DNA from: a virus | Lineage: Duplodnaviria; Heunggongvirae; Uroviricota; Caudoviricetes | Virus record (IMG/VR): IMGVR_UViG_2713896790_000009 | Length of the DNA stretch: 5,755 nt | Direction: 5' to 3' (one strand) | Shown here: positions 2,049-5,755 of the stretch, piece by piece | How positions within the stretch are numbered: the stretch's first letter is position 1 | Layout of the letters: every line of letters begins with the position of its first letter | The notes under the pieces: generated by a model | The model's input: the letters and a program-made list of their open reading frames with translations, nothing else | Databases searched by the model: none | What the model was told of the DNA's origin: nothing | Made by a program: the position numbers and the translations under genes

Positions 2049-4424
2049 ATGGCAGCAGTAAAAATCTCAGGTGTGCTGAAAGATGGTGCGGGAAAACCAA
2101 TACAGAACTGCACTATTCAACTGAAGGCAAAGCGTAACAGCACCACGGTACTGGTGAACACGGTGGCCTCTGAAAATCCGGATGAAGCCGGGCGTTACAG
2201 CATGGATGTTGAGTATGGTCAGTACAGCGTCACCCTGCTGGTTGAAGGTTTTCCGCCTTCACATGCCGGGACCATTACCGTCTATGAAGGTTCCAGACCA
2301 GGTACGCTGAATGATTTTCTCGGTGCCATGACGGAAGATGATGTCATGCCGGAGGCATTGCGTCGTTTTGAGGAAATGGTGGAAGAAGCGGCACGCAACG
2401 CTGAAGCCGCCTCTCAGAGCGCAGCGGCGGCAAAGAAATCCGAAACTGCAGCGGCATCATCGAAGAACGCGGCGAAAACCTCAGAAACGAATGCAGCTAA
2501 CAGCGCACAGGCGGCAGCGGCCTCGCAGACTGCATCGGCAAACTCCGCAACAGCAGCTAAAAAATCAGAAACCAACGCGAAAAATAGCGAGACAGCCGCA
2601 AAGACGAGCGAAACCAACGCAAAGTCCAGCCAGACGGCAGCGAAGACCAGCGAAACGAATGCCAAAGCCAGTGAAACTGCGGCAAAAAACAGCCAGGTTG
2701 CAGCAGCCCAAAGCGAGAGCGCGGCAGCCGGTTCTGCGACTTCAGCAGCTGGATCAGCAACTGCTACGGCTAACAGCCAGAAAGCTGCGAAGACGAGTGA
2801 AACTAACGCAAAGTCCAGCCAGACGGCAGCGAAGACCAGCGAAACGAATGCCAAAGCCAGTGAAACTGCGGCGAAAAGCAGTCAGGATGCAGCGGCTCAA
2901 AGCGAGAGTGCCGCAGCCAGTTCTGCAAGCGCGGCGGCTGCTTCTGCCACTGCATCAGCTAACAGTCAAAAAGCAGCAAAAACCAGTGAAACCAACGCAA
3001 AGGTGAGCGAAACAGCGGCAGCGAACTCAGCGAAAGCATCGGCAGCAAGCCAGACGGCAGCTAAAGCAAGCGAAGATGCAGCCAGAGAGTACGCAAGCCA
3101 GGCTGCGGAGCCGTATAAATATGTCTTACAGCCGCTGCCTGATGTGTGGATACCATTTAACGATTCGCTGGATATGATTACGGGCTTTTCGCCGTCATAT
3201 AAAAAAATTGTTATTGGTGACGATGAAATAACGATGCCTGGCGACAAGATTGTTAAGTTTAAACGTGCATCGAAAGCAACCTATATTAACAAATCTGGTG
3301 TGCTGACAGAGGCTGCCATTGACGAGCCACGATTTGAACGTGATGGCCTGCTTATTGAGGGGCAAAGAACAAACTACATGCTCAATTCGGAAAGCCCTGC
3401 CAGTTGGGGGCGATCTTCAAATATGGATGTGCCCGAAACAGGGACGGATAATTTTGGTTTTACCTATGGAAAGTTTGTCTGCAACGATTCTCTGATTGGG
3501 CAAACCTCAGCCATTAATATGGCATCAATTGCTGCAACAAAGTCAGTTGATGTCTCAGGCGATAATAAACACGTGACAACCTCATGTCGTTTTAAAACAG
3601 AACTGCAGGTAAGGTTGCGTATCCGGTTTGATAAATATGACGGTAGCGCAACAACTTTTCTTGGTGATGCGTATATTGATACACAAACGCTTGAAATTAA
3701 TATGACAGGCGGTGCTGCCTCAAGGATTACAGCGAGAGTCAGAAAGGACGAAGCTACCGGATGGATTTTTGCAGAGGCAACAATTCAGGCAATTGATGGG
3801 GAGCTAAAAATAGGCTCTCAGATACAGTATTCTCCTAAGCAGAGCGGGGCAACCGTATCTGGTGACTATATTTATCTGGCCACCCCACAAGTAGAAGATG
3901 GGCCTTGTGTATCATCTTTTATTATATCAGGAGCGACGGCGGCGACCCGCGCAAGCGATATAGTTACAGTTCCAATTAAGAATAATCTTTATAATCTTCC
4001 TTTTACGGTTCTTTGTGAGGTACATAAGAACTGGTATAAAACGCCAAATGCAGCGCCACGTGTTTTTGATACCGGCGGTCATCAAACCGGAGCGGCTATT
4101 ATTCTTGGCTTCGGTCGTTCAACAGATTACGACGGATTTCCTTATTGCGATATTGGAGGAGCTAACAGACGGGTAAACGAAAACGCATCGCTTGAAAAAA
4201 TGGTTATGGGGATGCGTGTAAAGTCAGAGCAGTCTACGTGCTCAGTAAGTAACGGGCATATATCCAGCGAAACAAAAACCACATGGTCCTGTATTCAGAA
4301 CACCGCAATTATCCGTATTGGAGGCCAGACTACAGCCGGGTTACGTCATTTATTTGGTCATGTCAGGAATTTCAGAATATGGCACAAGGCATTGACTGAT
4401 GCTCAGGTGGGGGAGTCAATCTAA
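2049..4424 (+). CDS. stf: Side tail fibre protein (Stf-like), mosaic: lambda-Stf-like N-terminal anchor, Ala/Ser/Thr/Lys-rich repetitive shaft, divergent C-terminal putative receptor-binding domain (possibly LamG/concanavalin-like jelly roll)
   Basis: ATG at 2049 with GGAG (2040-2043) upstream; the track's GTG at 2043 is a less likely start. Translation from 2049, MAAVKISGVLKDGAGKPIQNCTIQLKAKRNSTTVLVNTVASENPDEAGRYSMDVEYGQYSVTLLVEGFPPSHAGTITVYEGSRPGTLNDFLGAMTEDD, matches the lambda Stf N-terminus as I recall it. A single uninterrupted ORF ends at TAA 4422-4424. The C-terminal motif FGHVRNFRIWHKALTDAQV resembles the C-terminal strand signature of LamG-like domains; this is from memory and not verified. 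Confidence 0.85.
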   Translation: MAAVKISGVLKDGAGKPIQNCTIQLKAKRNSTTVLVNTVASENPDEAGRYSMDVEYGQYSVTLLVEGFPPSHAGTITVYEGSRPGTLNDFLGAMTEDDVMPEALRRFEEMVEEAARNAEAASQSAAAAKKSETAAASSKNAAKTSETNAANSAQAAAASQTASANSATAAKKSETNAKNSETAAKTSETNAKSSQTAAKTSETNAKASETAAKNSQVAAAQSESAAAGSATSAAGSATATANSQKAAKTSETNAKSSQTAAKTSETNAKASETAAKSSQDAAAQSESAAASSASAAAASATASANSQKAAKTSETNAKVSETAAANSAKASAASQTAAKASEDAAREYASQAAEPYKYVLQPLPDVWIPFNDSLDMITGFSPSYKKIVIGDDEITMPGDKIVKFKRASKATYINKSGVLTEAAIDEPRFERDGLLIEGQRTNYMLNSESPASWGRSSNMDVPETGTDNFGFTYGKFVCNDSLIGQTSAINMASIAATKSVDVSGDNKHVTTSCRFKTELQVRLRIRFDKYDGSATTFLGDAYIDTQTLEINMTGGAASRITARVRKDEATGWIFAEATIQAIDGELKIGSQIQYSPKQSGATVSGDYIYLATPQVEDGPCVSSFIISGATAATRASDIVTVPIKNNLYNLPFTVLCEVHKNWYKTPNAAPRVFDTGGHQTGAAIILGFGRSTDYDGFPYCDIGGANRRVNENASLEKMVMGMRVKSEQSTCSVSNGHISSETKTTWSCIQNTAIIRIGGQTTAGLRHLFGHVRNFRIWHKALTDAQVGESI
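2427..3080 (+). repeat. In-frame coding tandem repeats in the stf shaft region (about 33-bp AAKTSETNAKxSx-type sub-repeats; 189-bp tandem duplication)
   Basis: Copy 1 at about 2600-2788 and copy 2 at about 2789-2977 are offset by exactly 189 bp (63 codons), with a 68-bp perfectly identical core (2616-2683 = 2805-2872). A partial third copy starts near 2978. Encoded motif AAKTSETNAKSSQTAAKTSETNAKASETAAK recurs. Confidence 0.85.
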
Positions 4425-4705
4425 TGAAAGATTTAACACTCAAATTTGCCGACAGGGCCGACTTTTCGGCCTTTATGGATAGCACTGGCTATTATGATGA
4501 CGAGTCGATGCAGGATGATATTCTTATTGACGTGATAGGTAACGTGTACAAAGAAACCGGAGAACTGACTGAAGATGGCGAACCGGTATGTGTTAAGGAA
4601 GACGGATATTTTGTAAACGTGCGCATCATTAATGATTCGCAAATATCGTCATTATTCGATGAATACGTGGTTGCTGTTGAGCATCAACTTCGTGGCTGGA
4701 TGTGA
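4424..4705 (+). CDS. Hypothetical acidic 93-aa protein, translationally coupled to stf; candidate tail-fibre chaperone/assembly factor of unrecognised family
   Basis: ATG at 4424 overlaps the stf stop (TAATG), with GGGGGAG (4410-4416) upstream. ORF MKDLTLKFADRADFSAFMDSTGYYDDESMQDDILIDVIGNVYKETGELTEDGEPVCVKEDGYFVNVRIINDSQISSLFDEYVVAVEHQLRGWM is rich in Asp/Glu. It has no resemblance I can recognise to lambda Tfa; the function is inferred from position only. Confidence 0.6.
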   Translation: MKDLTLKFADRADFSAFMDSTGYYDDESMQDDILIDVIGNVYKETGELTEDGEPVCVKEDGYFVNVRIINDSQISSLFDEYVVAVEHQLRGWM

Positions 4706-4714
4706 GGAAGAAAA

Positions 4715-5755
4715 ATGGCTACATCGACAGTAATTCCTGATGACATCAAAACGCTAAAATCCGACGTTAGCAAATTAAAAAACGATCAAGGAAGCTACGC
4801 AACAAAATTATATGTAGACAGCAAAGATGAAATCGTTGGTGACTGGTCTGCTTCATGGTATCAGCAGGTATTGCCAACTAGCGGAGCTATATTTGGGAGA
4901 AAACTCCGCTCAACTCACAGGACGGCAGGTGTTGAGGATGCGTATTGCGAACTATACCTCAAAAAATGGATAGACAGTCCAGGTAACGCAATGGCGCGCC
5001 TTAACCTGAACGATAACGGGACAAACATTTGCTGGGACTTTACCAACCTTTATGGCGGTACGATGATTTTTCCCGGTGACAGCGGATACCTCAAAATGGG
5101 TAACTGCCTTATGTCATACAGCAAGCGTGGAAGTAACGCGCTTATTAAATTTGATTACACCGACACATTACAGATCAAATATGCCAATCATGGGTCAACC
5201 ATGACATTAAACACACAGGGAACCGCTTATGCTGGTGTTACTGCTCAATTGTGGGGCAACACCAGCCGTCCTGTTGTTTATGAAGTCGGTGTTGATGGTG
5301 GCGCTTATATGTTCTATGCGCAGAAAAATACCGATAACACCTATATGTTAAGCGTTAATGGTGCATGTCATGCCACCGCATTTAACCAGCATTCCGACCG
5401 GGATCTGAAAGACAACATTCAGGTGATCGATAATGCAACCGACCGCATCCGTAAAATGAACGGCTATACATACACGCTTAAAGAAAACGGTATGCCCTAT
5501 GCTGGTGTCATTGCACAGGAAGCTCTGGAAGCAATCCCAGAAGTTGTAGGTTCCGCAATGAAATATCAGGACGGTGCGAGCGGATCGGAAGGTGAAGAAG
5601 GTGAACGTTATTACACAGTAGATTATTCTGGTGTTACTGGCTTGCTTGTTCAGGTAGCCAGAGAGTCAGACGACAGAATAACAGCACTGGAAGAAGAAAA
5701 CGCAGAATTAAGACAAAGATTATCTGCAATTGAGGCGGCGCTTGCGTCTAAATAA
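4715..5755 (+). CDS. Tail fibre/tailspike-like protein with a C-terminal intramolecular-chaperone autoproteolytic domain (peptidase S74-like)
   Basis: ATG at 4715 with SD GAGGAAG (4704-4710); stop TAA 5753-5755. The C-terminal region HSDRDLKDNIQVIDNATDRIRKMNGYTYTL...YAGVIAQEALEAIPEVV...YYTVDYSGVTGLLVQVARE...ITALEEENAELRQRLSAIEAALASK carries the S-D-x-x-x-K-x-N-I signature with Ser227/Lys232 spacing and a terminal predicted coiled coil, as in the endosialidase and T5 L-shaped-fibre chaperone domains. The N-terminal 226 aa are unrecognised. Confidence 0.7.
   Translation: MATSTVIPDDIKTLKSDVSKLKNDQGSYATKLYVDSKDEIVGDWSASWYQQVLPTSGAIFGRKLRSTHRTAGVEDAYCELYLKKWIDSPGNAMARLNLNDNGTNICWDFTNLYGGTMIFPGDSGYLKMGNCLMSYSKRGSNALIKFDYTDTLQIKYANHGSTMTLNTQGTAYAGVTAQLWGNTSRPVVYEVGVDGGAYMFYAQKNTDNTYMLSVNGACHATAFNQHSDRDLKDNIQVIDNATDRIRKMNGYTYTLKENGMPYAGVIAQEALEAIPEVVGSAMKYQDGASGSEGEEGERYYTVDYSGVTGLLVQVARESDDRITALEEENAELRQRLSAIEAALASK

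Follow-up and report, generated by a model that had tools for sequence, protein, structure and literature searches.

An old nine-heptad duplication in the shaft of a lambdoid side tail fibre, with rare one- and three-copy alleles

Here we describe a tandem repeat in the side tail fibre gene of a 5,755-nucleotide stretch of caudovirus DNA (IMG/VR record IMGVR_UViG_2713896790_000009; this whole stretch is called the window). In the window lie the distal tail genes of a lambdoid Escherichia coli prophage, among them a fibre gene whose product resembles the side tail fibre (Stf) of phage lambda. Two copies of a 63-codon unit and part of a third follow each other in the shaft of the fibre. We consider it very likely that this arrangement is an old duplication of nine heptads in an Stf-like coiled-coil shaft, that a core segment of the copies was later gene-converted and that rare one- and three-copy alleles arise from it by misaligned exchange or slippage. 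The parts of the gene to which the following account refers are these.

2049-4424, plus strand: Stf-like side tail fibre gene, 791 amino acids (aa) from the ATG at 2049 (the list of open reading frames (ORFs) starts it at the GTG at 2043).
2355-3110, plus strand: shaft, aa 103-354, 36 uninterrupted heptads; predicted trimeric alpha-helical coiled coil.
2586-2774, plus strand: repeat unit A, 63 codons, 9 heptads.
2775-2963, plus strand: repeat unit B, 63 codons, 28 nt different from A.
2964-3002, plus strand: partial third copy, 13 codons (SQKAAKTSETNAK), delimited by the end of the Tandem Repeats Finder array at 3002 and by the unit alignment.
2616-2683, plus strand: perfect core, copy 1, unit positions 31-98, exactly identical to 2805-2872.
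2805-2872, plus strand: perfect core, copy 2, to which the recombination breakpoints of four variant alleles map.
3111-4421, plus strand: distal part of the fibre, aa 355-791, probably receptor-binding and not of the lambda/T4 gp37-like type.

Direct comparison at an offset of 189 confirmed the identity of 2616-2683 with 2805-2872, the 68-bp perfect core that an earlier note on this DNA had reported, and no other exact run at this offset is as long as 12 nt. Tandem Repeats Finder describes an array at 2586-3002 with a period of 189, 2.2 copies, 84% matches, 0% indels and a score of 603, and a repeat search returned two copies of 189 nt with 83% identity. Both units begin in frame 0 of the fibre ORF and thus hold 63 codons each; the unit alignment and Tandem Repeats Finder agree on the two 63-codon copies and the partial third copy that had been claimed. 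Past 3002, beyond the partial third copy, similarity to the unit is lost, both in Tandem Repeats Finder and in the alignment of unit B with the partial copy (C). The 189-bp periodicity, for which a self-alignment had been proposed as a check, is also evident from autocorrelation, which amounts to 0.62 at lag 189 and 0.50 at lag 21 over a background of 0.325 +/- 0.017; by this measure a single heptad of 21 bp is the fundamental period. A periodicity of 33 bp, proposed earlier as a second length step, was rejected, the value at lag 33 (0.338) being that of the background, and the smaller step is 21 bp instead.

Of the 189 aligned positions of units A and B, 28 carry different bases, every one of them outside the core, which corresponds to a divergence of 15% across the whole unit and of 23% outside the core. 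The substitutions hit 15 synonymous and 9 non-synonymous codons. What had been called an exact 189-bp duplication is therefore exact in its period, free of indels and in frame, but with 28 substitutions it is not exact in its sequence, and the flanks of the core, described as near-identical, reach an identity of just about 76-86%.

The contrast between core and flanks is stronger than expected from a uniform rate of change: 0 of 68 positions differ inside the core versus 28 of 121 outside (Fisher p = 1.8e-6), and the probability of finding no difference over 68 nt at the flank rate is 1.7e-8. Among codons specifying the same amino acid in both units, 15 of 32 are synonymously different outside the core versus 0 of 22 inside (p = 9.5e-5). 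We compared these units with seven diverged two-copy alleles (L006-L012). The flank sites diagnostic for A or B are largely conserved in them, which places the duplication before the spread of these alleles. In their cores A and B differ at 1-3 nt, at positions that vary by allele; the perfect match thus belongs to the allele of the window and its close relatives and not to the family. Two of the seven (L010, L011) moreover contain patches in which one unit bears the diagnostic bases of the other. Judged by this pattern of differences, the identity of the core most likely results from one or more gene conversions between the units.

Two other causes of core identity have to be considered. The heptads specified by the core (SETNAK / SQTAAKT) are the most canonical ones and recur elsewhere in the shaft, so that constraint on the protein together with codon preference might have kept it uniform without any recent exchange. 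This we regard as very improbable, since constraint on the protein does not account for the absence of synonymous differences in the 22 core codons when 15 of 32 codons outside have them, and codon preference is contradicted by other shaft heptads with these motifs, which use other codons and are 63-88% identical (family D1). Selection might instead act on the nucleotides of the core, which would then contain an RNA element, a recombination signal or an ORF in another frame or on the antisense strand. Invariant synonymous sites would agree with this, and the shaft is indeed overlapped by long ORFs at 2338-3006 (plus strand, 222 aa) and 2414-2854 (minus strand, 146 aa). Such ORFs are expected from GC-rich periodic coding for Ala, Ser and Lys, of which they are most likely by-products, and the antisense orf206b over the shaft of lambda is comparable. 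A function of the core at the RNA or nucleotide level was rejected: no Rfam family matches in the repeat, the predicted RNA fold is no better than that of shuffled sequence (z = +0.9) and there is no Chi site. Furthermore, the cores of the other alleles are imperfect, with their 1-3 differences at varying positions. Nucleotide-level selection in place of gene conversion consequently appears to us extremely unlikely.

The location of the repeat in a fibre shaft, as the earlier note had it, is well founded. Pfam family PF08400 (phage_tail_N) matches aa 3-132 with an E value of 7.3e-67 (223.9 bits versus a cutoff of 26.6). The structures of the collar domain of Ur-lambda Stf are PDB 9e7m and 9mgh, and residues 2-94 of 9e7m match the fibre with an E value of 7.5e-49. 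With lambda orf-401, the N-terminal half of Stf, BLASTP found 58% identity (aa 3-329 versus lambda 2-342), and this alignment extends through the repeat. A database protein identical over all 791 aa (P0004) is annotated as "prophage tail fiber N-terminal domain-containing protein". The genetic context agrees. The fibre starts at 2049, downstream of the C-terminus of gpJ (PF12421, the gpJ C-terminal domain, encoded at 899-1396) and of lom (Ail/Lom, PF06316, encoded at 1467-1985), and the order J - lom - fibre is common to lambda and related loci.

In Ur-lambda Stf, a collar (residues 1-91) and a linker (92-101) precede a proximal coiled-coil domain (102-393), a trimeric bundle, which is followed by a hinge and a distal domain (PMC12617516). 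The orf-401 alignment reaches lambda residue 342 and hence ends inside this coiled-coil domain (PMC12617516). The shaft of the window fibre follows the heptad consensus S-[E/Q/A]-T-[A/N]-A-[K/A]-x, with Ser at position 1 in 32 and Ala at position 5 in 31 of the 37 rows of the heptad table. The core residues Ser and Ala are spaced 4 and then 3 residues apart, and there is no stutter over aa 103-354. No Pfam repeat family was matched in the shaft, where PF08400 and a sub-threshold CarboxypepD_reg were the only hits. An AlphaFold2 (AF2) model computed from the single sequence contains helices at 96-217, 263-276 and 297-356, and the Gly/Ser-rich part of each unit comes out as coil; the model is poor and of low confidence (mean predicted local distance difference test score (pLDDT) 39.7), and its helices would give weak support to a helical shaft. 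Because 63 is nine times seven, gain or loss of a unit leaves reading frame and heptad register intact. At about 0.15 nm per residue, each unit of 63 residues would add about 9.4 nm to a rod of ~37 nm.

The distal half of the fibre is of another origin. BLASTP of the fibre protein revealed no similarity to lambda orf-401 past the shaft; instead, aa 435-635 match NCBIfam NF048003 (GTA_spike_fiber, "phage head spike fiber domain") with an E value of 3e-13. The combination of a T4 gp37-like distal domain with a Tfa chaperone encoded downstream was not found for the window fibre. With a distal domain unlike that of lambda and no family match downstream, the fibre is a mosaic of an Stf-type proximal half and a different distal half. 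In the genomes of MSB1_4I and AVS0655, two relatives discussed below, the distal half is exchanged for divergent sequence from about aa 440 on (after EGQRTN), which likewise makes the fibre a mosaic, its parts having been exchanged at a point distal to the shaft.

Alleles of this fibre differ by whole 189-bp units. Forms with 1, 2 and 3 copies were found, all of them in frame and in heptad register. The counts given for copy-number variants are lower bounds, drawn from the matches listed among roughly 4,800 matching records; the searched set comprised 5,426 complete genomes, about 1,049 of which carry the module. The three best protein matches (P0001-P0003) have 854 aa, i.e. 791 + 63, and the extra unit is their sole change. 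At the DNA level the three-copy form is represented by three draft assemblies, GCA_016108505.1, GCA_016595135.1 and GCA_036902485.1 (L001-L003). In all three the first unit is A, the third is B and the second is a hybrid with the left part of B and the right part of A, as expected of the product of an unequal exchange. Units 1 and 2 of these alleles are only 2-7 nt apart. The switch from B to A lies inside the core in L002 (between unit positions 30 and 99) and at 9-11 in L001 and L003. Upstream of the repeat, identity of L001, L002 and L003 to the window is 100%, 99.4% and 98.5%, respectively, and the downstream genes of L003 differ; these different backgrounds require at least two expansion events.

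One-copy alleles were found with the reciprocal junction. A query with the left part of A joined to the right part of B picked two complete genomes, CB209, whose fibre has 728 aa (791 - 63), and MSB1_4I, whose fibre of 738 aa has another distal domain. Phage IdasGreatGrand carries a one-unit fibre of 731 aa, and a query based on it added a third one-copy complete genome, AVS0655. The source record of IdasGreatGrand reads "mud in swamp"; going by this record, one-copy fibres include at least one from a phage that was isolated as infectious virus. Each of the four has a single hybrid unit, A on the left and B on the right. The best-fit breakpoints of CB209, MSB1_4I and AVS0655 fall in the core, and that of IdasGreatGrand falls at about unit positions 112-134. 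Together with L002, breakpoints thus lie within the 68-bp core in 4 of the 7 variant alleles, in line with the earlier suggestion that the core serves as a recombination substrate. Since backgrounds, C-terminal domains and junctions differ, the variant events are independent. The length polymorphism between isolates that had been anticipated does exist, in exact steps of 189 bp and with one and three copies observed, but it is rare: one-copy alleles account for at least 3 of the about 1,049 module-carrying complete genomes (about 0.3%), and if three-copy alleles are absent from these genomes, the 95% upper bound on their frequency is about 0.29%.

Other length classes of the shaft were noticed as well. 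It is shorter by 315 bp (15 heptads) in E. coli E02 (L013), E138 and the phages ev243, PhiR49_2 and PhiR40_1, and E. coli EFF60 (L019) lacks 84 bp (4 heptads) within unit A, the gene being annotated there in fragments. Both classes are whole-heptad changes throughout.

Among alleles that diverge by up to about 5%, the form with two copies far outnumbers the others. At an identity of at least 99%, 109 E. coli records contain the stretch 2300-3200 at its full 901 bp, and 967 of the complete E. coli genomes searched (5,426 genomes in all) match at least 80% of it. Alleles sampled over the range of identities retain the 901-bp span down to 94.6%. Phage records with the two-copy form are HannyBb, Tritos, PhiR63_1 and ev207. 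That exactly two units persist while the alleles diverge by about 5% is compatible with infrequent copy-number events as well as with selection for a given length.

Taken together, we propose the following course of events. A module of nine heptads (63 aa) would have been duplicated in frame long ago within a trimeric coiled-coil shaft. The copies then drifted apart, to a difference of 23% outside a 68-nt segment; gene conversion within the gene would have made this segment uniform again at a later time. The occasional one- and three-copy alleles would stem from slippage during replication or from recombination between misaligned copies, mostly within the 68-nt segment. The junctions outside the core may reflect co-conversion of neighbouring mismatches, microhomology events or parent alleles that were not sampled. 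In E. coli, short tandem repeats are deleted or expanded by misaligned replication or sister-strand exchange, with RecA-dependent crossover for longer homology, and deletion between tandem repeats of the present size is largely RecA-independent.

Several observations speak against this proposal or parts of it. The breakpoints of three of the seven variants (L001, L003, IdasGreatGrand) lie outside the core, which accordingly is not the sole exchange site. Two three-copy junction queries against the 5,426 complete genomes found no such junction; the best matches, at 96.3% and 97.5%, have the identities expected of two-copy alleles. The three-copy alleles found all come from draft assemblies. The assignment as a coiled coil depends on the heptad counts and on homology to a structural model that was built in part with AlphaFold3, and our own AF2 model of the fibre is the poor one mentioned above.

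Apart from gene conversion, which concerns the core, the copy number itself might be explained differently. The earlier note had warned that short-read assembly collapse could hide a higher copy number in this genome. The window does contain masked runs of N, and units 1 and 2 of three-copy alleles, at 2-7 nt apart, could collapse and be under-reported in short-read assemblies. For the window itself such an artefact is nevertheless hard to believe: the same 901-bp arrangement is present in the 109 records at 99% identity or more, in the 967 complete genomes and in genomes of isolated phages, neither of the two types of three-copy junction queried was found in complete genomes, and with 28 differences between A and B and an exact match of 68 nt, less than the common read length, any read extending past those 68 nt tells A from B. 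A further explanation holds that the repeat is a contingency locus, whose programmed or high-frequency length switching tunes the fibre to host surface layers. One-, two- and three-copy alleles do exist, all in frame and in heptad register, a one-copy fibre is found in a phage isolated as infectious virus, and tandem duplications in the tail fibre of an Enterococcus phage arose repeatedly under coevolution (PMC6365445). Yet variants make up no more than a small share of the module-carrying complete genomes (at least about 0.3%), the unit is long and 15% diverged, unlike known contingency repeats, there is no sign of heterogeneity within strains and the two-copy state persists down to about 94.6% identity. 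Frequent variation of the contingency type is not what at least three one-copy alleles and none of the tested three-copy junctions in about 1,049 genomes amount to, and we judge switching to be improbable.

A milder idea is that the 63-aa module acts as a length cassette, the reach of the fibre being under selection, two units being optimal for the usual hosts and the core supplying length variants. We think this rather unlikely, if somewhat less so than programmed switching. Were it true, a thinner O-antigen or capsule layer on the host could give shorter fibres an advantage and a thicker layer longer ones, and the near-fixation of two copies, despite a recombination-prone structure, would amount to stabilising selection on rod length.

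Further features of the window lie on either side of the fibre gene. Downstream, two genes follow.

4424-4705: ORF of 93 aa that overlaps the stop codon of the fibre gene (ATGA).
4715-5755: second fibre gene, 346 aa, with a Peptidase_S74 intramolecular chaperone domain.

The 93-aa ORF has no match to a Pfam or NCBIfam family. In all related loci and phages examined (L001-L005, L015, L016) it is conserved immediately behind the fibre gene, and its product may be a fibre assembly factor. In the relatives L001 (5856-8050), L002 and phage HannyBb, the second fibre gene is followed by a 97-aa ORF and then by a resolvase/DNA invertase gene, a hint that a fibre segment capable of inversion may lie immediately outside the window. 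Upstream, an amber codon (TAG) is present at 214-216 in the frame of gpJ, where the one-copy relative CB209 (L004) has CAG; if it is not due to a sequencing error, gpJ, the gene for the central tail fibre, looks inactivated by a nonsense mutation. Runs of 50 N are found at 813-862 in gpJ and at 1907-1956 in lom, and because the reading frames continue across them, they look like masking and not like assembly gaps. By eye, GC-rich hairpins with T runs that look like intrinsic terminators are seen at about 1417-1445, after gpJ, and at 2008-2038, after lom. A sub-threshold Rfam match to Trp_leader at 1957-2039 (E 0.86) is probably explained by the latter hairpin.

The repeat polymorphism reveals no new mechanism and no new kind of element. 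It is a natural example of how the rod of a fibre changes its length without breaking its fold, by recombination of whole nine-heptad modules between diverged repeats. Near-isogenic fibres with one, two and three modules are at hand, and among isolated phages IdasGreatGrand has one module and HannyBb, Tritos and ev207 have two. This natural length series could serve for asking whether the reach of side fibres affects adsorption, and the boundaries of the module offer natural cut points to engineers of phage fibres.

Among known systems, Stf of Ur-lambda (represented by orf-401 and orf-314 in lambda PaPa) is the closest. It shares with the window fibre the collar domain, the place after J and lom and a rod of Ser/Ala heptads. 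It differs in its T4 gp37-like, OmpC-binding distal domain, where the window fibre has the GTA_spike_fiber-like NF048003, and the alignment with orf-401 needs a gap of 14 residues, i.e. two heptads. Similarity extends to depolymerases of Klebsiella phages, DpK2 of phage RAD2 (7lzj) and Depo32 (7vyv/7vz3), in which chain residues 127-172 match the heptads of the shaft. This segment belongs to the N-terminal region, which in DpK2 is reported to be an extended triple-helical bundle and was not built as an atomic model (PMC8552709); it is in keeping with the coiled-coil reading of the shaft. This match is weak (E 0.002-0.003) and covers few heptads, and the remainder of these proteins are beta-helix enzymes unrelated to the window fibre.

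As regards the change of copy number, the variants resemble the products of tandem-repeat rearrangement in E. coli in that they have gained or lost one unit and in that the hybrids break in the longest stretch of identity in 4 of 7 cases; they differ in the three junctions outside the perfect core. In the literature we found no earlier account of a polymorphic 63-aa module in lambdoid Stf, and one precedent came from Enterococcus. Enterococcus phage EfV12-phi1 acquired in-frame tandem duplications of 1.8 kb in its tail fibre under coevolution (PMC6365445). In both cases a segment of the tail fibre upstream of the receptor-binding part varies in its number of tandem copies and remains in frame (PMC6365445). 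The duplications of EfV12-phi1 appeared in a matter of days under selection, rose to high copy numbers and varied within populations (PMC6365445), whereas the unit of the window is ten times shorter and old, with 23% divergence outside the core, and its variants are rare. The polymorphism described here is an ordinary instance of the known length variation of phage fibres.

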